Positions 5,599-61,557 of a stretch of DNA of 64,000 nt are shown piece by piece. The first letter of the stretch is position 1, and each line of letters starts with the position of its first letter. Origin of the DNA: Escherichia phage AV108; sequence record OR352938.1. The stretch is one strand, 5' to 3'. The notes beneath the pieces are model-generated. The model worked only from the letters and a program-made list of their open reading frames with translations. It was not told where the DNA came from and did no database searches. The position numbers and the translations under genes were made by a program.

Positions 5599-5630
5599 TT
5601 TGATTCTCCGTTTGTTGTCTTGATGGGAGT

Positions 5631-5659
5631 ATCTTACTACTCCCTTTAATCATTGTCAA
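5631..5659 (-). promoter_or_regulatory. sigma70-type early promoter (variant spacer)
   Basis: tgtcaa 5654-5659, TAAGAT-like -10 inside palindrome GGGAGTAGTAAGATACTCCC. Confidence 0.45.
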
Positions 5660-34922: not shown

Positions 34923-37844
34923 ATGGCAGATTTAAGCAGAATCCAATTTAAACGCACTAGCACTAAAGGTCGTAAACCGGATGCTAGTACGATGAATCCG
35001 GGGGAATTGGCAATCAACCTTGCGGATCAATATCTTCTTACTAAAAATGATTCCGGTGATATTATCAATTTAAGTTGTCCTCCGGTGTATGACCGCGATG
35101 TTACAATGGCGGGTAAGGTTAAAGGTAATAATTATATCTTAAGTAAAACCGCTAACTATCTGGAAGATCAGACAGCGAGAGATCTTAACTACTTTGGCGC
35201 TTTCCGTACCAATGGTCTTGATGGTCTTCTCGAACTCACGCTAAACGTTCCTCACTCTTACGGCGTCCAACATGGTCGAGGATTTACTTTCCAATATGGG
35301 CACACTGGATCGCGTGTAGAAACTTATGGATACAATAAAGAAGGTCAAAAAGCATTTAGCTATAAAATGTATCACGAAGGTGATAAACCTACTCCCTCAG
35401 AATTGAACGTTTATAGCAAACAAGAAATTGACAGAATGTTTATTAAAAACGTTAAAATGTCTGTTCCTTCCGGTGACGCAACTCGTGGTTACTTTAAGAT
35501 CGCGACCGCAATGATTCCTCAGAATAATGGTCGAATGGCATTTTTACGGATTTACGGCGGAAACGGATATAATGTTAACTCCTACGATCAGGTGGAGTTC
35601 CTTGAAATTGTGATTCGTGGTGGTAATAATAACCCTAAAGGTGTTAGTATTGCTGCATATCGTCGTAATTCTTTGAACGTCCATGAAGTATTTGCAATTA
35701 ATACTTCCGGTGATAACTATGACATTTATGTTAACTATGGTCGTTACACCGATAACGTTATTGTAGAGTTTGGAAAAACTGTTGATGTTGCATTGACTGT
35801 TCACGATGTTCCTGAATTTTCGGCGACTAAACCCGCAACCGGAACTAAATTTGATGCTCGTGTTATTACGATGTTCAACACCGAAAACAAAGCCGGAACG
35901 TTGATGTTTGATAATAACGGTCAAGGAACATATGATATTATCAGCTTGAATAACTCGACTGATATCAATAAAAAATATCTTCGTAAGTTTCGTAGCAAAT
36001 CCACAGAAACAATATGGCATGAGGTTGTCGAGGGTAGCGTATATCGTTTAGCTACTGGCGTTACTGATCAGTCAGACCAACTAAAAATTGATTTTAATGG
36101 GGTTACTGTAAATCGTCTTTTCGTTAAGGGAAATAATGCTATCAGAATGGAGCGTAGAGACGGACAAAGTAATTACCTAGAATTTTATGATTATCGTTCC
36201 GGTGCTAACCGCCGTCAAGGTTATCTAGGGTATGGTGACGGTACTACTAACACCGTACAGTTAGTAAATGAATTAACGGAAGGTAATAACTCATTAAGAC
36301 TGGATGATACTGGTCAGGTTACGTTGTCTGTAGGCAAAACAAAAATTGTATATACCAACGGACAATATTATTCCGCTAACTCTGATGCATATCGTATGAT
36401 CTATGGCAATTACGGTGCATTCTGGCGCAATGACGGGACTAAAGTTTATCTTCTTTCCACCGAAGAAAATGACCATTTTGGTGGATGGAACGGCAACCGA
36501 CCATTCATTTACGATTTGACGACTGGTAAAGTTACTTTAGGTGGTGACGGTAACGAAGGTGCATTAGTTCTTGAAAGAGATAGCCGTGCTGCTAGATTTG
36601 CTGGCGACATTTACGTTGGCAAAGGGATGTTAACATTTGATGCCGGACGATTAAATTCTCGTGATTACTTCCGGTTTAACCATTGGGGCGATAGCAATAA
36701 CGCTCGTGATAACATCTTACAGCTTGACGATAGCAAAGGCGCACACTTCACCACTGAACGTACTTTAGCAACTGGTGCAATTAAAACTAAATTCTTCGGT
36801 GATTTGGAATCTGCTGGTCAAATTAAATGGGGTAAAGGGACCGCCACATCTACGTTTACTCTACGTGTATGGGGTAACGATAGTCGTAAACAAATATTTG
36901 AATGCGGCGATGAAAGCGGGTGGCATTGGTATACCCAACGAGCGGGGGGTCCTGGTACAAATGATATTATATTCAATGTTAACGGGAAATTTCAATCTCA
37001 GGGTTTTGAGACTTCCGGTAATATTAAGATAACTGGTCCAGACCTTGAGTTTCGTCGCACTGGTAATAAGCATATCTGGTTTAGAGATCCAAACGGCTTA
37101 GAGTTAGGCGTGATGTACTGCGATGATGCTGGTGCTATTCGCTTCCGTGGTCAGAAACAAGCCCAGTCGTGGAAATTTGCAGATAAAATGATCCAGTTGG
37201 AATCTGGTACTGTATCCGGTGGCGGTAATGGCCTGATTCGTGGTGAAGTTGCTGGCGGTAGTTGGGCTAGCTGGCGTGACCGTGCTGCTGGCCTTATGGT
37301 TGGGTGTCCTCAATCAACCAATTCCGCTCATAACATCTGGAAAGCTACTCATTGGGGTAAATATCACATCGCAGCAATGGGTGTACACGTTCCTAGCGGT
37401 ACTATCGGTAATGCTATAGCTCGCCTAAACGTTCATGACGCCAACTTTGACTTTAGCGCCTCCGGTGACATGTCGGCAGGGCGTAACGGTTCGTTTAACG
37501 ATGTGTACATTCGTTCTGATGCTCGCCTGAAAATCAATAAGGAAGAGTATAAAGAGAATGCCACCGATAAAGTTAATCGCTTGACGGTATACACCTATGA
37601 CAAGGTTAAATCTTTAACCGACCGTACTGTCATTGCTCATGAAGTTGGTATTATTGCTCAGGATCTTGAAAAAGAATTGCCGGAAGCCGTAACAACTTCT
37701 AAGATCGGAGATCCAGATAATCCAGAAGAGATCTTAACAATTTCTAACTCTGCTGTCAACGCTCTTTTAATTAAGGCGTTTCAGGAAATGAGCGAAGAAT
37801 TGAAAGCCGTTAAAGCTGAACTAGCGGAACTTAAAAAGAATTAA
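34923..37844 (+). CDS. 37: long tail fiber distal subunit (large), with a C-terminal chaperone-like domain
   Basis: N-terminus MADLSRIQFKRTSTKGRKP matches T4 gp37 as recalled; C-terminal 130 aa carry an SDARLK motif and coiled-coil tail like peptidase S74 intramolecular chaperones. Confidence 0.85.
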   Translation: MADLSRIQFKRTSTKGRKPDASTMNPGELAINLADQYLLTKNDSGDIINLSCPPVYDRDVTMAGKVKGNNYILSKTANYLEDQTARDLNYFGAFRTNGLDGLLELTLNVPHSYGVQHGRGFTFQYGHTGSRVETYGYNKEGQKAFSYKMYHEGDKPTPSELNVYSKQEIDRMFIKNVKMSVPSGDATRGYFKIATAMIPQNNGRMAFLRIYGGNGYNVNSYDQVEFLEIVIRGGNNNPKGVSIAAYRRNSLNVHEVFAINTSGDNYDIYVNYGRYTDNVIVEFGKTVDVALTVHDVPEFSATKPATGTKFDARVITMFNTENKAGTLMFDNNGQGTYDIISLNNSTDINKKYLRKFRSKSTETIWHEVVEGSVYRLATGVTDQSDQLKIDFNGVTVNRLFVKGNNAIRMERRDGQSNYLEFYDYRSGANRRQGYLGYGDGTTNTVQLVNELTEGNNSLRLDDTGQVTLSVGKTKIVYTNGQYYSANSDAYRMIYGNYGAFWRNDGTKVYLLSTEENDHFGGWNGNRPFIYDLTTGKVTLGGDGNEGALVLERDSRAARFAGDIYVGKGMLTFDAGRLNSRDYFRFNHWGDSNNARDNILQLDDSKGAHFTTERTLATGAIKTKFFGDLESAGQIKWGKGTATSTFTLRVWGNDSRKQIFECGDESGWHWYTQRAGGPGTNDIIFNVNGKFQSQGFETSGNIKITGPDLEFRRTGNKHIWFRDPNGLELGVMYCDDAGAIRFRGQKQAQSWKFADKMIQLESGTVSGGGNGLIRGEVAGGSWASWRDRAAGLMVGCPQSTNSAHNIWKATHWGKYHIAAMGVHVPSGTIGNAIARLNVHDANFDFSASGDMSAGRNGSFNDVYIRSDARLKINKEEYKENATDKVNRLTVYTYDKVKSLTDRTVIAHEVGIIAQDLEKELPEAVTTSKIGDPDNPEEILTISNSAVNALLIKAFQEMSEELKAVKAELAELKKN

Positions 37845-38158: not shown

Positions 38159-38815
38159 ATGCAAGTTTCTGAAAAAGGGAAAGACTTTGCTATCTCAAAT
38201 GTCCTGCGCGCTATTTTCACAACTAAAAGCACGGAGTTGCTCGTACTTCGTGTTTTTGCTGCCGTCGTGTTGTCCATATTGGCATTTGTCGTTTATAGTA
38301 AAAACGAGTTATTTGCGCTTTATAAAGAGACTCGTTATGAGACTTATGCTCACATTCTCCAGGTAGAGAAAGACCGCAATTTTGATAATGCAGCACAGGA
38401 GCAGTTACAGATAGTTCATGTGTCGGCTGATGCCGATTTTTCTGCTGTTTTTAGTTTTCGTCCGAAAAACCTAAACTATTTTGTTGATTTGGTGGCATAT
38501 GAAGGAAAGCTACCGCATACAATCGATGAAAAAAATTTAGGCGGATTCCCTATCAATAAAACGAGTGAAGAATATCGTAGGCATCTTTTAGGTAAATCAT
38601 ATTTTACCGATAAAGATTTCCAGTATATTCCATCAAGAGAAAAGAAATTAGAGAATATCGATATAGGTTTCATGTATTCTTGTCCTATATTCAATCTCGA
38701 TAATGTCTATTCTGGTAGTATCGCCATTTCATGGAAGAATAAACCGGATATTGACATTGAGAATTTAGATACTCTTTGCAATCAATCTGCCAGAATCCTC
38801 GGAAGGATTAGATAA
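38159..38815 (+). CDS. t: holin
   Basis: 218 aa, collinear with T4 holin T as recalled (EQLQIVHVSADADFSAVFSFRPKNLNYFVDLVAYEGKLP, MYSCPIFNLDNVY, ARILGR). Confidence 0.88.
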   Translation: MQVSEKGKDFAISNVLRAIFTTKSTELLVLRVFAAVVLSILAFVVYSKNELFALYKETRYETYAHILQVEKDRNFDNAAQEQLQIVHVSADADFSAVFSFRPKNLNYFVDLVAYEGKLPHTIDEKNLGGFPINKTSEEYRRHLLGKSYFTDKDFQYIPSREKKLENIDIGFMYSCPIFNLDNVYSGSIAISWKNKPDIDIENLDTLCNQSARILGRIR

Positions 38816-38821
38816 CTTAAA

Positions 38822-38852
38822 GGGGAAGCCTTTCGGCCTCCCCTTCTTTTTA
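38822..38852 (+). terminator. terminator between convergent genes
   Basis: GGGGAAGCC-tttc-GGCCTCCCC hairpin with flanking T/A runs between t (+) and the minus-strand ORF ending at 38850. Confidence 0.55.
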
Positions 38853-39098
38853 TTGGCGCATAGACGCGCCTGAATCGCATTTTGACGCTGTATGATGAAA
38901 ACAGGTAGCGTACCAGTCATCGGCTTGTTTGTCTTCGTCAGAAAACGCGTAATTGCGTTGTATGCCGTTTTCTACTTTGACCAGTGCAATAGCTGTTTCT
39001 GGAAGATCAATCAATCGGACAAAATCGCCATCTTCCCATTCTACACGAGCAATATCATAACCCATCTCAAAATAAACAATCGCTTGCTCTAATCTCAT
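38850..39098 (-). CDS. hypothetical protein
   Basis: 82-aa ORF, last gene of the minus-strand early block. Confidence 0.4.
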   Translation of the reverse strand: MRLEQAIVYFEMGYDIARVEWEDGDFVRLIDLPETAIALVKVENGIQRNYAFSDEDKQADDWYATCFHHTASKCDSGASMRQ

Positions 39099-39799: not shown

Positions 39800-40132
39800 T
39801 TACAGATGAAAACCTGTTACGATCACCGCATCGATCATACCGCTAGGAATAAACGGTTCGCCCTCTTTTATTTCAACTTTGAATTGATGCCATTTCGCTA
39901 ATACTTCTTCCGGTACACCCAGCGATTTGGCGTCTGCTTTAGTTTCATCCATAATCCAACTAGGCTGCATGAGAGCATAGTTTACATAGTCCATTTCTGG
40001 GGTCATGTCATCAATGTTAATATATTTGCAGTTGACGCGTTTCAGAATTTCAAATTCTTTATTGTCAACCTGTACCATGTATAATTCAGTAGTTTCTGGA
40101 ATCAGTTCCCACACAATCAGTACATTTTTCAT
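39800..40132 (-). CDS. hypothetical protein
   Basis: 110-aa ORF. Confidence 0.45.
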   Translation of the reverse strand: MKNVLIVWELIPETTELYMVQVDNKEFEILKRVNCKYINIDDMTPEMDYVNYALMQPSWIMDETKADAKSLGVPEEVLAKWHQFKVEIKEGEPFIPSGMIDAVIVTGFHL

Positions 40133-40140
40133 AGTTCACC

Positions 40141-40509
40141 TCACTTAACAAAGATTTTCTTTAATGCTTTCAGGATCGTTGCTTCCGGCGCTTCTTCCGG
40201 TGGAGGAAGCAATTCTACCACTTCCTCTTCCAACTCGATATAGTCTACCAGATATTCTACATAGAATGCAAGTGCTTCCATGAAATTAGATGCTACATCC
40301 GATTCACCACAAGCGCCTACATGCATTGTATAAACATCACTGCGATCAAGTTTGTGGATGCTTCCCAGATAGTTTCGGTTATACCAAACTTCCCACACTT
40401 TCAGCTTTCCGGTTTTAGTCGCTGTTTTATAATCGGTTTCGTAATGATGCAATTGACGTTGCAGATCATTGATAATAACACATTTTTCGTAATTGTTTTG
40501 AATTTCCAT
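40141..40509 (-). CDS. hypothetical protein
   Basis: 122-aa ORF with acidic Pro/Glu-rich C-terminus. Confidence 0.45.
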   Translation of the reverse strand: MEIQNNYEKCVIINDLQRQLHHYETDYKTATKTGKLKVWEVWYNRNYLGSIHKLDRSDVYTMHVGACGESDVASNFMEALAFYVEYLVDYIELEEEVVELLPPPEEAPEATILKALKKIFVK

Positions 40510-40519
40510 GATGTAATCC

Positions 40520-40711
40520 TCACTTATCGTTAAGAAGTTCTAAAACCTTCTGTCGTACTTTATCAATATTAGTTGATTCAAAAACTGTACGGTATCCCCA
40601 GCTTTGACCGTATGAGCGCGAGCAATCCCCATATCCCCATTGTTCAACCTGATAATATTCAAGGAATGGATGTTGTCGAACTATGATACCATCGCGATTA
40701 AAAATTACCAT
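40520..40711 (-). CDS. hypothetical protein
   Basis: 63-aa ORF. Confidence 0.35.
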   Translation of the reverse strand: MVIFNRDGIIVRQHPFLEYYQVEQWGYGDCSRSYGQSWGYRTVFESTNIDKVRQKVLELLNDK

Positions 40712-40734
40712 GATATAATCCTCACGTCAACAAC

Positions 40735-41016
40735 TTATTTTCTGTTGTACTTCTGCCACTTTCTGTAATACTGCTTGTAAAATTGTTTAATGTTTGGTGG
40801 TTCGTCACTATACATGTTATCAACCATCATGTCAATAAGACCTTCCGGTGTTTGATAGTTACCCGCTCGAATGAGTTCCTTAATCAAAAGATCTTGTGCC
40901 GCTTTATACTTGACAATAACAACTGTCTTTTCTGCCTTTCCAATTCCGATCCGGTCGTTAGCTCTCATAGCATCCCACCAATCTTTTTTAAACTTCATGT
41001 TGTTAAATTTCATCAT
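40735..41016 (-). CDS. hypothetical protein
   Basis: 93-aa ORF abutting the stop of the upstream gene. Confidence 0.45.
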   Translation of the reverse strand: MMKFNNMKFKKDWWDAMRANDRIGIGKAEKTVVIVKYKAAQDLLIKELIRAGNYQTPEGLIDMMVDNMYSDEPPNIKQFYKQYYRKWQKYNRK

Positions 41017-41816
41017 TAACCCTTCTTATATTCGCAAACATATTGAGTACCATAATCATAGCTAATGCGACCTTTCTCGATGACTTCAAAGCGGATTTCA
41101 TCGTTTTCCCCTACCCACATTTTGTACTCGTTGAAGTATCCTGCTACATCCGGTTTGCTCATACCAACAACCATATTTTTATATTGTTTGCTGCGTGTCA
41201 GATTTGATTTAAACACTTCGCGCTCATCAACATATACGAAAGAAGACAATTCACCTTCGGTCATGGTCATTTTCAGCTTGCCGCCCTTATTGCCATAAGT
41301 AGAGTTGCCATACAATGGATCTTTGCGGCTGTCTGTTTCAATACCATCAATGATTTTCCATGTAAATTTTGCAATGCACTGATAAGTGATAGATCCAGAG
41401 ATTTTCTCTTCTTTCTTCTGTTCTTCCACCACTTTTTCTTCCTGTTTCGGTTGTTCTTCTTCAACCTTCGCAGAAGTCTCTGAATCGCTTTCTGACGCGG
41501 TTTCTTCTTTAGGTAATACATTCATCAAGTTTTGGATTTGAGCGTTGTATACAGCCTCCAGTGGCTGAATCTGCCCGATATTGATCATTGTGTCACGAAC
41601 AGTTTTATTCCAGTTTCGTTGCTCTTGTTTCAGAGACGGATCAATCTTAACAGCCTTAACATACACCTCATGAAGTTTAGAGTCCAGTGCGGAGATAGAC
41701 TCATTAGCACAAATAAACTTCTCTGATTTGGTAGTAGCTTTAGCGCAATCAAAGGACGCAGCGTTAGCACCGAAAGCAGTAGCAGAAAGAACGATAGCAG
41801 CGATAATGTTTTTCAT
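41016..41816 (-). CDS. secreted DUF1311 (LprI-like N-terminal domain) protein
   Basis: signal peptide MKNIIAAIVLSATAFGANA; FDCAKATTKSEKFICANESISALDSKLHEVY and EQRNWNKTVRD fit the DUF1311 signature; acidic linker; promoter 41850-41878. Confidence 0.55.
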   Translation of the reverse strand: MKNIIAAIVLSATAFGANAASFDCAKATTKSEKFICANESISALDSKLHEVYVKAVKIDPSLKQEQRNWNKTVRDTMINIGQIQPLEAVYNAQIQNLMNVLPKEETASESDSETSAKVEEEQPKQEEKVVEEQKKEEKISGSITYQCIAKFTWKIIDGIETDSRKDPLYGNSTYGNKGGKLKMTMTEGELSSFVYVDEREVFKSNLTRSKQYKNMVVGMSKPDVAGYFNEYKMWVGENDEIRFEVIEKGRISYDYGTQYVCEYKKG

Positions 41817-41849
41817 AATATATTCCTCAATGTTTTTCTTGATGGGAGT

Positions 41850-41878
41850 ATCTTACTACTCCCTTAATCCGGTGTCAA
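41850..41878 (-). promoter_or_regulatory. sigma70-type early promoter (variant spacer)
   Basis: tgtcaa 41873-41878; -10 inside palindrome GGGAGTAGTAAGATACTCCC. Confidence 0.45.
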
Positions 41879-41885
41879 CTACTTT

Positions 41886-42098
41886 TTAATTTTTACCCGC
41901 TCGTGCATTAATACGCATTTTCTGCATAGCCATGATCTGGTTTACTGCTTCTTCTTTACGTTCTTGCGTGATAACGTGACCAGATTCAGCAAACTCTCCC
42001 GCAACTTCTTCTACGATCTCGCGAACTTGAGAACGTCCAAAGATGCGGTTTCCTTCGTAGCTCATAAATTCAGTCACTACTTGCTCAATAGATTTCAT
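41886..42098 (-). CDS. hypothetical protein
   Basis: ORF track 41886..42143; likely start ATG 42096-42098 (MKSIEQ) with AAGGAGAATCAC leader; promoter 42127-42155. Confidence 0.45.
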   Translation of the reverse strand: MKSIEQVVTEFMSYEGNRIFGRSQVREIVEEVAGEFAESGHVITQERKEEAVNQIMAMQKMRINARAGKN

Positions 42099-42126
42099 GT
42101 GATTCTCCTTTAGTTTGGTATGGGAG

Positions 42127-42155
42127 TATAATACTACTCCCATTTCTTTACGTCA
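42127..42155 (-). promoter_or_regulatory. sigma70-type early promoter
   Basis: cgtcaa 42150-42155, TATTAT -10 inside palindrome GGGAGTAGTATTATACTCCC. Confidence 0.45.
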
Positions 42156-42159
42156 ACAA

Positions 42160-42390
42160 CTATTTTAAATTATTTTCGACCTTCATCCATTCCGCGTATT
42201 CTTGCGCGGCTACTTTCGGATTTAGTCCGTCTTCGTACATTGCTTCAAGTAATTCTTCGTCGGTGGGCTTATATCCTAGATAAGCCTCCACCTGATTTTT
42301 CCAAATTTTATACCAGTTCATATTATCACCAATCAAGAGCGCGTGTCTCTGCGTCTTCCCATGCTTGATCCATAACAGCCTTGAAAACAT
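42160..42390 (-). CDS. hypothetical protein
   Basis: 76-aa ORF; real start may be the internal MNWYK at 42321. Confidence 0.35.
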   Translation of the reverse strand: MFSRLLWIKHGKTQRHALLIGDNMNWYKIWKNQVEAYLGYKPTDEELLEAMYEDGLNPKVAAQEYAEWMKVENNLK

Positions 42391-42598
42391 ATTCTAGAGT
42401 ATCATCTTTAGAGAATCCGAAGACCTTAGACGGGATATCTTCAATTGCTACTCCCGCAACTTCTGCATTACGCGCTTGGCAATAATGCAACTCTAAGTTA
42501 TCGAGATAGCGACCGCCTAATTTATCCATATCATCCCAGCATTTCCAGTAACCTACTTGATCTGCAATTGCTAACACTTTGCTGTTTTTGTTGCTCAT
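42326..42598 (-). CDS. hypothetical protein
   Basis: ORF track 42326..42661; likely start ATG 42596-42598 (MSNKNSK) with AAGGAGAATCAAAG leader; promoter 42630-42658. Confidence 0.45.
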   Translation of the reverse strand: MSNKNSKVLAIADQVGYWKCWDDMDKLGGRYLDNLELHYCQARNAEVAGVAIEDIPSKVFGFSKDDTLEYVFKAVMDQAWEDAETRALDW

Positions 42599-42672
42599 CT
42601 TTGATTCTCCTTTTGTTTGGTATGGGTGTATTATGCAATGCTGGATTTGTGAAGTCAACAACTTTTTAAAAT

Positions 42673-42698
42673 AAAAAAGCCGACCACAAGGATCGGCT
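42673..42698 (-). terminator. rho-independent terminator
   Basis: AGCCGATCC-N5-GGTCGGCT hairpin then U-run on the minus transcript, downstream of the 42709..43101 stop. Confidence 0.55.
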
Positions 42699-42708
42699 TA
42701 ATAATCAG

Positions 42709-43101
42709 TTACTTACTAAATTTCTTTTTGGCTTCGTCTACTGCATGAGATGCCAGTACCGCAGCCGCATGTGCACTTTTATCTGTGTTACATAGAACAC
42801 CCAGATAAACATCACGCCAAAGTTTAATCATCTCGTAGATCATATCAATATCATTTTCTTGTTTGTTGGTGATGCTATTCGTCGTTATCTGGTAAGGTAA
42901 CGGCTTAATCTGTACTGGTTCCGCCATCGGGCTAAACGGTTTCTGATCAGTCATCGGATTAATTGGTGGCGATGTTTTCCATACGTCATTATTCCACGGT
43001 TTAATCGTTGTATCGTAAAGTTTATAAGGATTTTTGTCCGGGTCAACCATCCATGCATGATGAGTACCCAAACCATTTGAAGTGATGCGTCGTTCAGTCA
43101 T
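42709..43101 (-). CDS. hypothetical protein
   Basis: 130-aa ORF. Confidence 0.5.
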   Translation of the reverse strand: MTERRITSNGLGTHHAWMVDPDKNPYKLYDTTIKPWNNDVWKTSPPINPMTDQKPFSPMAEPVQIKPLPYQITTNSITNKQENDIDMIYEMIKLWRDVYLGVLCNTDKSAHAAAVLASHAVDEAKKKFSK

Positions 43102-43104
43102 AAT

Positions 43105-43308
43105 TTATTTCCTCTCTGAAAATTCTTTCATCAAGCTGTCGATCTTTGCTCTGTGTTCTGGTGTGTTTGTTATCTCTGCTAACTTATTCAGAGATTCAAT
43201 AGTGATCCGGTTGGCTTCTTCCATAGTCTCAACGACCATTGGCACAATCTTTTTATTGTTGTACACAAATGCAATATAACCGCCTTCTGGATATTCTTTC
43301 ATAATCAA
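43105..43308 (-). CDS. hypothetical protein
   Basis: 67-aa ORF directly downstream of gene 52. Confidence 0.4.
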   Translation of the reverse strand: MIMKEYPEGGYIAFVYNNKKIVPMVVETMEEANRITIESLNKLAEITNTPEHRAKIDSLMKEFSERK

Positions 43309-44666
43309 CCCTTCTTAAGTTCTTTAAGATCTTTCTTATATTCCTTCATTGCTGTCGTCTTTGTCCAATACTCATATTCACTATGATGTTTATCGGCATC
43401 TTTGACCAGTCGATCATACTCTTCTTGAGTAACGCTATACAATGGCATAGAAACTAGCTTATCGGCGTATGGACGCAGTTTTTCGTGTCCATTGATGGAT
43501 TGCATTACCTCGGCCTTTTTCTTGCCCTGTAGCTCGATTTCGCCCTTAATTACGCGGTCGATAAATTCAGCTTTAGCCATTGCATAATTGTATGCTTCCA
43601 GCGTTTCCGCTTGCATCAATTCAATGCGTTTATCTACATAGCCTAATCGGATTTCGACGAATCGACGGATCAGATCGCTCGCTTTCTCGAATACTTCTAC
43701 TAAACCACGTTCGTTAACTACTACGATATTCTGGGCTACTAACTGCGTTAGTTTAAAATCCTTCATGATTTGCTCATGTCGAGCGGATTCATCTTCGCTT
43801 TTGAAATAATCGCGTTTCAGTGTTACTTCAAATCTGAATCCGTCCTTAGAGCAACGGTCATTATACGATACAATCAGATCTTTTTCTTCCAGTGCATCAA
43901 GTACCGCTACATATTCTTCACGGTCGAACTTATAAGGAACTTCTGATATTGTCAGCTTAGTCTTGCCGTTTAGTTCATATGTACCCTCAAGAATCACACC
44001 ATCGCGATCATCTCGCGGGATAACTTTACCCGTGAATTTCGGGAATTGAACACTAGGTTCTTTATCCAGTTTTCCGGCAAGTGCTAGCTCTGTGCATTCA
44101 ATGAGGCTTTCCAGTGAATGCGGTAAAATGTCAGTTTTATACCCTGTAGCAATACCACTAATACCATTAGCCAATACCATTGGCACAACTGGCAAGTAGA
44201 ACGCTGGCGGGATGTGTTCCAGATCTTCGTGCTTGGGTGCGCAATTCATATCTTTATAGATTTTAAAGAAGTTTTCATGCACGCGAGCAAAGATATAACG
44301 TGCCGCACCTGCTTTCTGGACTAAACGCGATCCGAAGTTACCTTGACCGTCAAGCAGTGGAGTATTATTGCTCCATGTATTCGCCATAAGTGATCCGGCT
44401 TCTACGGCATTAGTTTCCCCGTGGTGATACCCCAACTCAGCGACACCAGATCCAATATCTGCCATCTTACGGAATTTCTTACGGTCGCCTTTACTCTTTT
44501 GCAAAGCACATTCCATAACAAAGCGTTGCACTGGTTTAAGACCATCAACTAATTGAGGAATCCCGCGTTCCTCAGCAGAATAGATCGCATATTCCTTAGC
44601 TTCATTATGTACAATGCTTTCAAAGCTGCGGTAAGTAACTGATTTATTCATCTTCACCTCATACAC
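43305..44666 (-). CDS. 52: topoisomerase II medium subunit (GyrA-like)
   Basis: collinear with T4 gp52 as recalled (DGLKPVQRFV, LLDGQGNFGSR, AARYIFAR, PAFYLPVVP). Confidence 0.9.
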   Translation of the reverse strand: MYEVKMNKSVTYRSFESIVHNEAKEYAIYSAEERGIPQLVDGLKPVQRFVMECALQKSKGDRKKFRKMADIGSGVAELGYHHGETNAVEAGSLMANTWSNNTPLLDGQGNFGSRLVQKAGAARYIFARVHENFFKIYKDMNCAPKHEDLEHIPPAFYLPVVPMVLANGISGIATGYKTDILPHSLESLIECTELALAGKLDKEPSVQFPKFTGKVIPRDDRDGVILEGTYELNGKTKLTISEVPYKFDREEYVAVLDALEEKDLIVSYNDRCSKDGFRFEVTLKRDYFKSEDESARHEQIMKDFKLTQLVAQNIVVVNERGLVEVFEKASDLIRRFVEIRLGYVDKRIELMQAETLEAYNYAMAKAEFIDRVIKGEIELQGKKKAEVMQSINGHEKLRPYADKLVSMPLYSVTQEEYDRLVKDADKHHSEYEYWTKTTAMKEYKKDLKELKKG

Positions 44667-57488: not shown

Positions 57489-58517
57489 TTAAAATTTACA
57501 ATATTTCATAAACCGCATTTTAGCCATCAGACCTTGTACGGTGTTCTCTTTGATATATTCCATGATCTGGTCGCGTGTAGCGCCCTCGTCCTGAATCATG
57601 GCGTTAACGTCTTTAGAATGCCACGGGCAACGATCCCACAATACAATCTTTTCCCCTGCATTGATAAACTTTTCCAGTCGGTGCATTGTATCGGCAGACC
57701 GTGGTTCCGCATCAAGTACAAACACTCGCTGGTCTGGGAAAGGGATTTCATCTAATCCCAAAGTACCGCCAGTAATTGCACACCCGTTATCAATAAACAA
57801 TGAATCGATCGGACCTTCTAAGAAATACACTGGTTTACTCGGATCGGCGCGTTCAAGACCATAGACCTTACTCGCTAACTCGTGAGTTTTAATCGTCATA
57901 TATTTGGTCTTTCCGTAATCCTTTCTCAATGCTCGCCCCTGAATGGATTCTATCTTGTTCTCGCGGTTAAAGATAGGAATCACTAAACGCGGTTCAGGTT
58001 GTGGATTCTTGAAAGTATCCGCCTTAATGTGATTTGCTACCTTTTGCCATTCTCTCGTGAAATACAGAAGATCCCATTTATCGTGAGGAATACAGCGATC
58101 ACTGACATACTTTATTATAGGATGATTAGCCGGAAGAGTATCTAATCTCTCGCAGAAAGGCAATGTTTGCACTTTCTTAATCTCCGGCTTTTCTACCTTT
58201 TTCAGTGGCTTGAACGTGGTGTTCTTGTGGTCGCCTTGTTCCTTCCGTCGTTCCATAAGCCATTCCCTGAATAGGTCCGGCTTATACTGTTTGAGAAATT
58301 CACCTAACGGCTGATTGTAGTTACAGTTGAAACAGCCGCAACGCAAACTATCCTTATAGGTATAGATACGGAATCGCGCCATTGTGCTATTCTTTTTGGA
58401 ATCTCCGCAGATCGGACAACTTGCTACTAACGTAAATGAGTTAGTATGTAACCGCTTGAAATTTCGTTCGCCGTATATGGCTTTTTCCGCTATTTCATAA
58501 TCTGCGTAGTAAATCAT
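57489..58517 (-). CDS. 61: DNA primase
   Basis: 342 aa as T4 gp61; zinc ribbon CPICGDS ... CGCFNCNY and TOPRIM-like region. Confidence 0.85.
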   Translation of the reverse strand: MIYYADYEIAEKAIYGERNFKRLHTNSFTLVASCPICGDSKKNSTMARFRIYTYKDSLRCGCFNCNYNQPLGEFLKQYKPDLFREWLMERRKEQGDHKNTTFKPLKKVEKPEIKKVQTLPFCERLDTLPANHPIIKYVSDRCIPHDKWDLLYFTREWQKVANHIKADTFKNPQPEPRLVIPIFNRENKIESIQGRALRKDYGKTKYMTIKTHELASKVYGLERADPSKPVYFLEGPIDSLFIDNGCAITGGTLGLDEIPFPDQRVFVLDAEPRSADTMHRLEKFINAGEKIVLWDRCPWHSKDVNAMIQDEGATRDQIMEYIKENTVQGLMAKMRFMKYCKF

Positions 58518-58526
58518 AATAACCTC

Positions 58527-58730
58527 TTATAGCTCAAATTTCATGAAAGTTCCTACACTTTCATTTTCATTCTCTCCGTTTTCATCTAAGCCAAATTTGT
58601 AGACACTACCATCTGGCGATGTGTAAGAGAATACACGAAAACGGCCTACCGGATCAAGTTCCATGAACTCATATTCTTTTCCGGCTTCAAAAAGTGCATA
58701 TGTGCTTTTAAGACATTTCATCGTAATCAT
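58527..58730 (-). CDS. hypothetical protein
   Basis: 67-aa ORF. Confidence 0.4.
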   Translation of the reverse strand: MITMKCLKSTYALFEAGKEYEFMELDPVGRFRVFSYTSPDGSVYKFGLDENGENENESVGTFMKFEL

Positions 58731-59050
58731 TTAAGTGCCACCGACAACAGAATGAGAACTACACCAACATACATTGTGATCTCGGATAACTTTTCTGTTT
58801 TTGTTTTGTGTCCAGATAATCCGAAAACAACAACACCGATAATAGCGGACAGCAAGCCAACGATAAACATGATGATACTAAGCACCGTCTTTCTCCTTTT
58901 TGCGTTTTTCTTTACCCGCTACACTAGGTCCACGATTGGTAATAGATCCGTTCGTTTCACCTGCTGCGATTTTCTCAGGATTGCCGCCAGCATCGCCAGC
59001 GGTCATATCTTCTTTGAGTTTATTTTCTTCAACAAACTGTTTAAATCCAA

Positions 59051-59428
59051 TCATAGAATAATCTCTTTCAGTAAGTCAACAATCTGGTCTTTCGTCAGTT
59101 TATCCTGATTCTCTACAATCTTGATAACACAAGCATTAACATCTTTTCGAGTCACGCGGGAGATCGTTTTAATACGATGAAACGGTTCGTAGAAATATAC
59201 TGCTTCATTATAGAGAGCGGATACTTTACGACGCATTTGATCTTTATCTGACAAGAAAACAAGTGCTGTTTTATGACCTTCTACACCCGCCACGTTATAT
59301 AGTTCAGCAACACCCCAGCGACCTTCCGGTTCAATCATTCCGGCGTGTTTACCGTCGATAAAAATAAGAATATCTCCGTTGAATGCGGTTTTGAATGCTA
59401 CATCTTCCGGCGTAATCATATTTTTCAT
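59051..59428 (-). CDS. hypothetical protein
   Basis: 125-aa ORF between 41 and 61. Confidence 0.45.
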   Translation of the reverse strand: MKNMITPEDVAFKTAFNGDILIFIDGKHAGMIEPEGRWGVAELYNVAGVEGHKTALVFLSDKDQMRRKVSALYNEAVYFYEPFHRIKTISRVTRKDVNACVIKIVENQDKLTKDQIVDLLKEIIL

Positions 59429-59458
59429 AATATAGTCTCCTTAGAGTTTCATTATAGA

Positions 59459-60094
59459 TCAAGCGAATGTAGAAAGCAAATGTTTTGTTTCTTTCAGTTG
59501 TCGTTCAAGATCTTTGCGTTTCTCTTTAAGTTGCATTTTAGCATTATTTCGCTGTTTTTCAACATCTTTATCAATGCTCTTATTCCAGTTATCAATATCA
59601 GAATAAGTTGGCATACCCAATTCTAGACCTAATGCGGTTGGATACAGGGTAACAGTCCATAAACCGCTAATCTTCTTAAATAGGTCTGGGTGTAGTGTAC
59701 TATCTACATCTTCCGGTGTCAACTCTTTTTCTTCTTTCAGTGGTGGGATCTCGTCATATGGTTCCAGTGCATTTACTTTAATATCAGATACCTCATCAAA
59801 GAATCCGCGTACATCCGCAGGAAATACACAAGCAATTTCCCAACCGTGATCACGCAGAGAAGTAATATTTTTCACTCCCCCACCATGTGTGATGATTGAT
59901 GTGACATTGCCATCAAGGTCCACCGAATTTACGAGAAATGGCTTATCGTCTGTCAGATCATTATAAAACTGTGCTTCGGCTGTAGTCATCTCCAGAAACA
60001 GATCTCGGATCGGACGACCATCAGGTGCGTTACCTTCCTTGAGAGTATAAAAGCGACTTACGATCCATTTTGGCGGTAAAGCATTAGCGATCAT
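59459..60094 (-). CDS. hypothetical protein
   Basis: 211-aa ORF with an ITHGGGV motif and a Lys/Glu-rich C-terminal tail. Confidence 0.45.
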   Translation of the reverse strand: MIANALPPKWIVSRFYTLKEGNAPDGRPIRDLFLEMTTAEAQFYNDLTDDKPFLVNSVDLDGNVTSIITHGGGVKNITSLRDHGWEIACVFPADVRGFFDEVSDIKVNALEPYDEIPPLKEEKELTPEDVDSTLHPDLFKKISGLWTVTLYPTALGLELGMPTYSDIDNWNKSIDKDVEKQRNNAKMQLKEKRKDLERQLKETKHLLSTFA

Positions 60095-60144
60095 GTTATA
60101 TCTCCTATCAAATCATTCACCAGCGCCCCGCAGGGCGCATTTTA

Positions 60145-61557
60145 TTAGAAAGTCATGTTATTTGCTAGCTCGTCGAGTTTTTCTCGTTTCTCGGCTTGCT
60201 GTGCGCTTTGTGGTTTAACTTGTGCATTCTCCTGATCTGCGATCTGGTTTGGTACTTCATACCAACGCTGATTGCCTTTCTTCACACCAACGTTAAACCG
60301 TGAATAATAGTTCTTGTCACCGTAACGAGACTTGATCTGCTTCATGAGTTGGACGCCCATTTTAGCCAGGTCTTCGGTTTCGATAACACCCAACATAAAG
60401 TCGGCAGTAGCCGGAAGACCTGCTGATTCAGCGGTATCACTCATGTTAAGGTCGGAAGCATCCCAACCCGCGCGGGTAGTCTGTGCCGCAGTCCAACCAA
60501 CAACATCCCACTTAACAAAAAATCCTCGCAGTTCTTCCGCAATCGCCTTAACTAGTGTGTAACTATTTTCAGAGTATACACGCAAGCGAGACGATGCGCA
60601 AATCCCCAGATAGTCAACAATCACAACATCAGGTTTAAACTGTTTCTTGAGTCGCAATTCATTCATTAACGCCTCAAAGTGATTGGAGTTCGCGCCACCA
60701 GTCGGATACTGCTTGATCATCAATTTTCCAACCGGACGATCTCCGATCTTCTTATTCTTAACACGCTTCATGCGTGCGGAATATTCCGCAAAAGAAACAT
60801 TACCATTATCCAATTCATCTAATGTAATGTCAAGCAAGTTTGCGTCGATACGTTTTGCTACTACATGCTCCGCCATCTCCATTGAGATATACAATACATC
60901 ATAACCACATTCCATATAATCCGCAGCAAGAGAACACAAGCCAAGCGATTTACCAACGTTTACACCAGCAAGCAACACATTTAGCGTTTTTCTTTCCGCC
61001 CCTCCTTTCGTGATTTTATTCAACATCGGCAGCTTAAACGGGATCTTATTCGCCTTAGTCTGATATAGCAAGAATCGTTTTTCAAAGTCATTAAACCAGT
61101 CATGACCTACATCAGAATCAAACGTAATGGATAGTGCTTCCTGCATGATCTCAGGAATAGCACCCTCACTCGGCAATTTCTTATTCTGTTTCTCTTTTGG
61201 TAGTTGTGCGTTCGCCTGAATCTCTAGCGCCCGTGACATTGCATTATACATAGCGCGGTCACGAATAAATTTTTCGGTTTCCTTCATTAACCAATCAAGG
61301 TCTTCCGGTGTATTCTCCAGCGAATCGAGAAGAGTTTTCGCCCCTTCATATGTTGTCTGATTTCCTCTCTCCTTGTCTAAAGCAATCTGTAATGCAGTTG
61401 GCGTAGGAATATTGGAATATTCGTCTACGTGCTTTTTAATCAGCTTATAAATCAGTTTTTCTTCGTCTTCGGTGAAGTAGTCCGCTTTAAGGTGAGGCCA
61501 TACATTCGTAAAGAATGCGCCATTGTAAATCAACTGTGAAAAGATAGTTTTAATCAT
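60145..61557 (-). CDS. 41: replicative DNA helicase (DnaB-like)
   Basis: long identical blocks to T4 gp41 as recalled (VPFKL, LNKITKGGAE, LNVLLAGVNVGKSLGLCSLAADY, VLYISMEMAE, ESAGLPATADFML, SRYGDKN). Confidence 0.92.
   Translation of the reverse strand: MIKTIFSQLIYNGAFFTNVWPHLKADYFTEDEEKLIYKLIKKHVDEYSNIPTPTALQIALDKERGNQTTYEGAKTLLDSLENTPEDLDWLMKETEKFIRDRAMYNAMSRALEIQANAQLPKEKQNKKLPSEGAIPEIMQEALSITFDSDVGHDWFNDFEKRFLLYQTKANKIPFKLPMLNKITKGGAERKTLNVLLAGVNVGKSLGLCSLAADYMECGYDVLYISMEMAEHVVAKRIDANLLDITLDELDNGNVSFAEYSARMKRVKNKKIGDRPVGKLMIKQYPTGGANSNHFEALMNELRLKKQFKPDVVIVDYLGICASSRLRVYSENSYTLVKAIAEELRGFFVKWDVVGWTAAQTTRAGWDASDLNMSDTAESAGLPATADFMLGVIETEDLAKMGVQLMKQIKSRYGDKNYYSRFNVGVKKGNQRWYEVPNQIADQENAQVKPQSAQQAEKREKLDELANNMTF

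Follow-up and report, generated by a model that had tools for sequence, protein, structure and literature searches.

The DUF1311 gene and its promoter

This analysis concerns a 64,000-nucleotide (nt) stretch of the genome of Escherichia phage AV108 (sequence record OR352938.1), hereafter referred to as the window, and a gene in it that encodes a putative exported protein with an N-terminal DUF1311 (LprI-type) domain. In related phages and prophages, a nearly constant N-terminal module of this protein is combined with differing C-terminal domains, and a role in the periplasm against foreign cell-wall hydrolases is tentatively suggested.

The window is a segment of a Krischvirus genome (RB49/Phi1/GEC-3S-like), and its positions 40000–43000 show 97% identity to MIZ6, Phi1, and GEC-3S and are matched in 58 RB49-like records. 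The gene is a minus-strand open reading frame (ORF) located at 41016..41816 that runs from ATG to stop, co-directionally with all adjoining early genes, and encodes 266 amino acids (aa), the mature product being 247 aa long. The full-length product matches PHROG 14799 with an E-value (E) of 6e-157. The DUF1311 match of RB49ORF260c was tabulated already in 2006 (E = 0.2; PMC1524935), and the names used today in NCBI/UniProt are “lysozyme inhibitor LprI family” and “LprI-like N-terminal domain-containing protein”. The DUF1311/LprI annotation of the gene itself is not new; newly found here are the predicted barrel, the strongly conserved N-terminal module, at least eight exchanged C-terminal classes, and the sharing of the gene with prophages. 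The gene and its upstream region contain the following features:

41850..41878, minus strand: sigma-70-type early promoter (TTGACA, 17-nt spacer, TAAGAT) with 10/12 consensus matches
41844..41863: inverted repeat GGGAGTA-N6-TACTCCC, which overlaps the −10 hexamer and provides the stem-loop of a promoter-early stem-loop (PeSL) cassette
41825..41828, minus strand: ribosome-binding site GAGG, 9–12 nt 5′ of the ATG, read from the sequence
41760..41816, minus strand: codons 1–19, Sec signal peptide MKNIIAAIVLSATAFGANA, with predicted cleavage ANA↓AS
41514..41759, minus strand: codons 20–101, helical DUF1311/LprI-N domain with Cys24 and Cys36, the constant module
41391..41513, minus strand: codons 102–142, flexible low-complexity linker rich in Glu, Lys, and Ser, with the recombination junction at ~41416–41446
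41019..41390, minus strand: codons 143–266, variable module, a predicted eight-stranded antiparallel beta-barrel with invariant Cys147 and Cys261

An earlier sequence-only reading had placed the gene in an early gene block, and the TTGACA-17-TAAGAT promoter in front of it agrees with this. The same promoter is annotated with −35/−10 signals in GEC-3S and is invariant in RB49, JSE, and GEC-3S. The inverted repeat GGGAGTA-N6-TACTCCC occurs in three copies in the window (5625–5644, 41844–41863, and 42122–42141; 0 expected from 100 shuffles), the second and third of which wrap the −10 hexamer of an early promoter. PeSL cassettes, which consist of a strong sigma-70-like early promoter and a conserved stem-loop, were described in RB49 and phi1, where they mediate modular shuffling (PMC2839356). 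Both elements are present in front of the DUF1311 gene, with TTGACA-17-TAAGAT overlapping GGGAGTA-N6-TACTCCC.

Domain structure of the product

The signal peptide was assigned using the −3/−1 rule, hydropathy, and the conservation of the junction in homologues. Residues 1–17 constitute the sole hydrophobic segment of the protein and are followed by A-N-A↓A-S, with Ala at positions −3 and −1; the AxA↓ASFDC junction is conserved in the distant homologues from Klebsiella, Aeromonas, and SSU5-like phages. A lipobox was looked for at FGANA↓ASFDC, and no L-x-x-C was found, the Cys being located at +5, so that the protein is not a lipoprotein of the LprI type.

According to the Pfam analysis, residues 24–76 match PF07007 (LprI/DUF1311) with 25.5 bits (gathering cut-off 22, E 1.8e-5); the match is partial and covers profile positions 1–71 of 106, about two thirds of the model. 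When a profile was built from the N-terminal domains of four phage proteins, it retrieved 177 proteins at E ≤ 1e-3, the majority of which have a precomputed PF07007 match. They are mostly single-domain proteins of 100–180 aa, with “lysozyme inhibitor LprI family” or YecT/DUF1311 as the name of several. Since the PF07007 score lies above the cut-off and the profile search retrieves PF07007 proteins, membership in DUF1311 is considered solid.

The DUF1311 family typically has two Cys pairs. In the Pfam description of the family, all members carry conserved cysteines (PMC7933661). Only the first pair (Cys24 and Cys36) is present in the phage protein, and the position after QRNW..RD, usually occupied by the third Cys, is Met or Ile; the N-terminal domain is a variant of the DUF1311 domain. 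In the full-length prediction this domain is modelled poorly (predicted local distance difference test score, pLDDT, 35–60) because the alignment there is invariant, and a profile search of the Protein Data Bank (PDB) gave a marginal match to 6AR7 (E 0.11). The linker (residues 102–142) is acidic, with 14 D/E and 7 K/R in 41 residues; it is predicted to be disordered (pLDDT < 50), and the number of its repeats varies in two of the homologues (P0004 and P0017).

The C-terminal domain is predicted confidently (pLDDT 88) as an eight-stranded antiparallel beta-barrel. Cys147 is located in predicted strand 1 and Cys261 in strand 8, and both are invariant in all alleles. A disulfide between strands 1 and 8 of an eight-stranded barrel is kept across MliC, PliC, Neisseria ACP, and Brucella PhiA (PMC5507604; PMC8334348). 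The model therefore suggests a barrel of MliC/PliC/ACP/PhiA topology that Cys147 and Cys261 may close by a disulfide. With its DUF1311 domain followed by a predicted barrel of eight strands that has Cys in strands 1 and 8, the protein shares the architecture of LprI (Rv1541c) of Mycobacterium tuberculosis, in which an exported N-terminal DUF1311 domain likewise precedes an eight-stranded barrel (PMC7933661). The two proteins differ in several respects. LprI is a lipoprotein, whereas the phage protein has an AxA signal-peptidase I site without a lipobox; the phage barrel is ~120 aa long versus ~85 aa in LprI, and the phage domains are split by the 40-residue acidic linker; the phage protein has one of the two DUF1311 Cys pairs, and its barrel, unlike that of LprI, shows neither an MliC Pfam match nor MliC motifs.

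Sequence searches with the barrel were negative. No match of the C-terminal domain was found in Pfam, NCBIfam, PADLOC, or PDB sequences. In an exhaustive hidden Markov model (HMM) search, a profile of seven barrel alleles compared with 1.84 billion representative proteins retrieved only its own cluster and two repeat proteins (PKD-like), which matched on 40 residues and were considered spurious. None of the seven alleles matches PF09864 (MliC/PliC) at E ≤ 10, hhalign of the barrel with E. coli MliC gives a probability of 0.6%, and the barrel profile retrieves no MliC/PliC chain from the PDB. The inhibitory motifs of MliC/PliC, SxSGAxY in loop 4 and YxxxTKG in strand 6 (PMC5507604), occur in none of the aligned alleles. 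By these criteria the barrel is not a sequence member of MliC/PliC; no sequence relationship to ACP or PhiA was detected either, and unrelated barrels score equally well. For fold searches the PDB and BFVD libraries were used; Foldseek gave only lipocalin-type barrels, at E > 0.01, and the other barrels in the comparison of this domain were Cap15, designed barrels, a Bacteroides lipid-binding protein, and OmpW. Conservation in strands versus loops (0.59 vs 0.52) is uninformative. ACP and PhiA have the fold without the inhibitory motifs, and PhiA is also without demonstrable inhibition, which shows that such a fold lacking the motif need not inhibit lysozyme in vitro (PMC8334348).

The sequence-only reading had proposed a cleavable signal peptide, a DUF1311 signature, a Glu/Lys-rich linker, a C-terminal domain of unknown function and, from the family name, a lysozyme inhibitor. 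Its structural description holds in each part: the signal peptide by the hydrophobic segment, the Ala residues and the conserved junction, DUF1311 by the Pfam score and the profile search, the linker by its composition, and the C-terminal domain by the lack of Pfam, PDB-sequence, and PADLOC matches. The step from the Pfam name to inhibition of lysozyme is weak as it was argued there. For lysozyme resistance conferred by LprI, the MliC domain and not DUF1311 was reported to be sufficient, and ScwA of Salmonella is a DUF1311 protein without a lysozyme-resistance phenotype (PMC7933661).

Allelic classes, prophage copies, and neighbouring genes

In the alignment of 17 homologues, residues 1 to ~125 are nearly invariant, and identity in the C-terminal domain falls to 15–45%. 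At the DNA level, the window, GEC-3S, RB49, and JSE show ~98–100% identity from the promoter to ~41416, a position inside the linker, beyond which the classes are unalignable. Clustering of 32 sequences at 60% identity resulted in eight C-terminal classes, hence at least eight. Homology between the JSE-type class and the window-type C-terminal domain is not demonstrable, with an hhalign probability of 4% and a likeness that is confined to the initial 25 residues and to the terminal Cys.

The rates of nonsynonymous (dN) and synonymous (dS) substitution were estimated by the Nei–Gojobori method. In the N-terminal module, dN is 0–0.03 and dS is 0.09–0.25 (dN/dS about 0.05), values that point to strong purifying selection. 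For sequences from different barrel classes, dN amounts to 0.5–1.5 and dS is saturated; within one barrel class (window vs P0002), dN is 0.107 and dS 0.99, giving dN/dS about 0.1. Given the saturated dS between classes and dN/dS of ~0.1 within a class, an origin of the diverse barrels by in-situ hypermutation or positive selection was rejected, and the barrels are probably old allelic lineages under purifying selection that were swapped as cassettes. The window and GEC-3S have near-identical barrels (dS 0.014) and diverged N-terminal modules (dS 0.18), and the linker is the site of recombination between the two. The combination of a constant N-terminal module and diverged barrels fits the pattern expected if a recognition module is subject to balancing selection.

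A sister family, PHROG 4675, shares the signal peptide and the DUF1311 start (36–47% identity) and has a different C-terminal region with two Cys. It was found in Klebsiella Marfavirus (Marfa), Aeromonas T4-like phages (CC2), and SSU5-like phage-plasmids (Salmonella phage SSU5); in Marfa its gene is located between primase and dCTPase, ~2 kb from an annotated Spackle gene. No T4-type (Tequatrovirus) records were present among the DUF1311 homologues in the phage search.

Of 5426 complete E. coli genomes, 26 (~0.5%) contain a chromosomal copy. The DNA of these copies is 94–96% identical to the phage gene, but only between a point 6 nt 5′ of the ATG and the linker. In each of the three chromosomal loci examined (L002, L010, and L011), the gene has a prophage-derived region on one side and hicAB on the other, next to hicB; in the two annotated loci (L010 and L011), hicB is interrupted by a prophage that has a lambda-type gpA terminase, and the antitoxin gene is truncated. 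The DUF1311 gene is the last gene of this hicB prophage, with a small-terminase-like gene and hicB as its neighbours, and in IMG/VR it is located ~1 kb or less from the end of prophage-sized contigs of 23–36 kb. Morons that serve exclusion or conversion typically occupy such a place at the end of a prophage. At least three C-terminal classes, one of them common to a Krischvirus-like contig (72% aa identity), are represented among the prophage copies. These similarities indicate an exchange of gene fragments between a virulent T4-like phage and a temperate phage.

A first alternative for the function is a role in immunity against other bacteria. In enterohaemorrhagic E. coli, the signal-peptide DUF1311 protein Etsi4 protects from a periplasmic cell-wall-targeting type VI secretion system (T6SS) effector (PMC12981562), and SED_RS06230 of S. 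Dublin, also a signal-peptide DUF1311 protein, confers immunity to an effector of this kind (PMC8867033). In Pantoea, DUF1311 genes are predicted immunity genes beside lysozyme-like effectors, and orphan copies exist. The phage protein resembles these proteins in having a signal peptide followed by DUF1311, and it could be an orphan immunity protein against antibacterial toxins acting in the periplasm (T6SS cell-wall effectors, muramidase-type bacteriocins) that keeps the host alive, with each barrel or DUF1311 combination covering another effector. T6SS immunity is the only experimentally supported role of enterobacterial signal-peptide DUF1311 proteins; such genes are commonly polymorphic and mobile, and the place at the prophage end suits a gene of benefit to the lysogen. 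However, the DUF1311 immunity proteins known so far have a single domain and 110–180 aa and are encoded beside their effectors, whereas the phage protein has an additional variable barrel, and no effector gene adjoins the DUF1311 gene in the phage, where the neighbours are small early ORFs, or in the prophages. T6SS immunity would also be of little benefit to a virulent phage that has a short latent period. This explanation is considered improbable.

In the window, the DUF1311 gene is one of ~15 small minus-strand ORFs located between two other genes, an arrangement that is the same in RB49 and GEC-3S. The flanking genes and the nearest neighbour are as follows:

38159..38815, plus strand: holin gene t, one flank of the early ORF run
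43305..44666: topoisomerase gene 52, the other flank of the early ORF run
40735..41016, minus strand: 93-aa ORF (PHROG 15915) of unknown function without a signal peptide, the start of which overlaps the stop of the DUF1311 gene

The middle of the 93-aa ORF is mosaic among Krischviruses, and the distribution of its alleles is independent of that of the barrel alleles. It was rejected as a strictly linked partner, since Makalu-type phages combine a window-like ORF (91% nt identity) with an RB49-type barrel. The last ORF of the early block (38850..39098, minus strand, 82 aa) matches Pfam PF11195 (Tad2-like, Thoeris anti-defence 2) with 27.1 bits (cut-off 25) and also PHROG 1048; because of the Tad2-like match, the block holds at least one candidate anti-defence gene. 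For another ORF of the block (40141..40509, minus strand, 122 aa), a homologue on related contigs has a precomputed match to PF26821 (Phage_T4_Y16F), a family named for a T4 protein from the asiA–motA region, and hmmscan of the window's own 122-aa protein gave no Pfam match at E ≤ 0.01.

The distance between the DUF1311 gene and holin gene t is ~2.2 kb, and this proximity bears on a second alternative, in which the protein would modulate peptidoglycan hydrolases of the host and thereby stabilise the envelope or affect lysis timing or lysis inhibition. A precedent is ScwA, which controls the levels of the lytic transglycosylase MltD and other hydrolases and lyses cells when overproduced (PMC7933661). 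Like the phage product, ScwA is a soluble periplasmic DUF1311 protein, disulfide-stabilised and tied to the control of peptidoglycan hydrolases; it differs in having a C-terminal DUF1311 domain in an all-helical protein of 275 aa and in being chromosomal, not polymorphic, and without a barrel. An invariant N-terminal module would fit a conserved host target, yet such a target leaves the extreme and ancient polymorphism of the barrel unexplained. Moreover, nothing linked the gene to the holin or antiholin, its place near t being part of the general T4-type gene order, and none of the results speaks to the lysis timing that the sequence-only reading had also proposed. Modulation of host hydrolases is regarded as being as doubtful as orphan immunity.

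Possible function in the periplasm

The sequence-only reading had compared the protein with Spackle (gp61.3) of T4. In T4, the genes sp (Spackle), 61.2, 61.4, and dmd are found between genes 61 and 41. In the syntenic interval of RB49, no sp is annotated, and dc1, dc2, and 61.1 are located there instead. A tblastn search of the window with T4-type and Marfa Spackle gave only chance hits. The corresponding part of the window (58517–60145, from primase gene 61 to helicase gene 41) contains ORFs unrelated to those of T4, among them one of 52 aa (58727..58885) that has two hydrophobic segments. Spackle, a helical bundle of 75 aa, binds the gp5 lysozyme allosterically (PMC7677548). Both Spackle and, as judged from its sequence, the AV108 product are early, Sec-exported periplasmic phage proteins with disulfides, which in the AV108 product are putative. 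They differ in size and fold, the AV108 product consisting of a helical domain and a barrel, and Spackle is conserved and not polymorphic.

The predicted MliC-like barrel, the roles of DUF1311 proteins in T6SS immunity, and the lack of a detected Spackle homologue make the idea of an inhibitor reasonable again, and a lysozyme-inhibitor or Spackle-like function is plausible by analogy. The reading preferred here is that the protein may be a periplasmic neutraliser of incoming cell-wall hydrolases that acts as an exclusion factor, which we put forward tentatively, as a possibility somewhat short of an even chance. The export signal, the domain architecture, the early promoter, the selection pattern, the cassette exchange, and the sharing with prophages on which it builds are directly supported.

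Under this proposal, a soluble periplasmic protein would be made from the first minutes of infection, with the constant DUF1311 module joined by the flexible acidic linker to a disulfide-closed barrel. It would act as a periplasmic binder of the immunity type, neutralising a cell-wall-degrading protein that arrives from outside. The likeliest target would be a peptidoglycan hydrolase on the tail of a superinfecting phage, and the result would be protection of the envelope or superinfection exclusion. The barrel allele would set which foreign protein is recognised. Here, the binding partner, the inhibition, and the division of roles between the modules are what we infer.

Several lines of evidence point to this function. 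The protein is predicted to be targeted to the periplasm and is preceded by an early promoter. Its DUF1311 relatives protect from periplasmic effectors that target the cell wall, and ScwA controls MltD. The architecture, DUF1311 with a predicted barrel, is LprI-like, and the pattern of evolution is in line with balancing selection on a module for recognition. In prophages the gene occupies the last, moron-type position, and its copies have different barrel alleles. Finally, a Spackle homologue was not detected in the window, the phage search gave no DUF1311 homologue in T4-type (Tequatrovirus) records, and the Tad2-like gene in the same block marks a region of conflict genes.

Other observations weigh against the proposal, and several predictions of its simplest form failed. 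The protein has no relationship to Spackle in sequence (tblastn) or fold, and in Klebsiella phage Marfa a DUF1311 homologue occurs together with Spackle. If the barrel allele were tuned to the lysozyme of kin phages, it should follow gp5, which in RB49 carries a Phage_lysozyme domain. Such tracking was not seen because gp5 is conserved: the gp5 lysozyme DNA is 94–100% identical in all 59 Krischvirus records, whatever the barrel class, and the polymorphism of the barrel is not tuned to the gp5 of kin phages. If the gp5 of kin phages is the target, the conserved N-terminal module would be a better candidate for its recognition than the barrel. The barrel alleles also do not track the tips of gp37, as receptor masking would predict. 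Phages with the barrel of the window (GEC-3S, MIZ, and E26) have very different gp37 tips, and the tips closest to that of the window belong to RB49 and FL37, both of another barrel class.

The gp37 tip of the window is encoded at 36300–37844, in the 3′ part of gene 37; nothing in the phage collection matches it closely, the best match being 88.5% at the nt level (RB49 and Phi1), and the otherwise near-identical MIZ6 and GEC-3S match it poorly. Because near-identical phages match so poorly here, the receptor-binding tip is a separate mosaic hotspot.

The gp37 comparison bears also on a third alternative, that a lipocalin-like barrel binds something other than a hydrolase, namely, an outer-membrane receptor on its periplasmic face (masking it, as Llp of T5 does), a periplasmic domain of a defence sensor of the host, or a small ligand, with DUF1311 being merely a scaffold or an oligomerisation domain. 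However, the barrel alleles do not co-vary with the receptor-binding tip, known receptor maskers are lipoproteins, which the protein is not, and no PADLOC or other defence-related match was obtained. Binding of a non-hydrolase is considered unlikely. Neutralisation of incoming hydrolases is placed first among the explanations, followed by binding of a non-hydrolase, and then, at an equal level, by T6SS/bacteriocin immunity and modulation of host autolysins or lysis timing.

A broader and bolder proposal, also unlikely at present, is that the gene represents a modular allelic system of “periplasmic immunity” common to virulent T4-like phages and temperate E. coli prophages. An invariant DUF1311 handle would carry interchangeable heads, each of which would exclude its own set of competing phages or neutralise another foreign cell-wall hydrolase. 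If true, the system would be a functional analogue of colicin-immunity typing and would include the first exclusion factor identified in the Spackle-less Krischviruses; in lysogens, this module would have been taken up for defence against phages.

In T4-like phages, superinfection exclusion is understood for only a few proteins (Imm and Spackle), and RB49-like phages are used in phage therapy cocktails. The DUF1311 gene is a good experimental lead rather than a demonstrated new system: a periplasmic, early, LprI-like protein with allele-specific heads, found as a prophage moron, makes a concrete and cheaply testable candidate for exclusion or defence. Negative tests would be a warning against reading “lysozyme inhibitor” from the name of PF07007. 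If the barrel alleles set specificity, some unexplained incompatibilities of cocktail phages and some resistance of lysogens would be explained, and, if the proposed function is true, DUF1311 proteins with MliC-like barrels would gain a role in conflict between phages.

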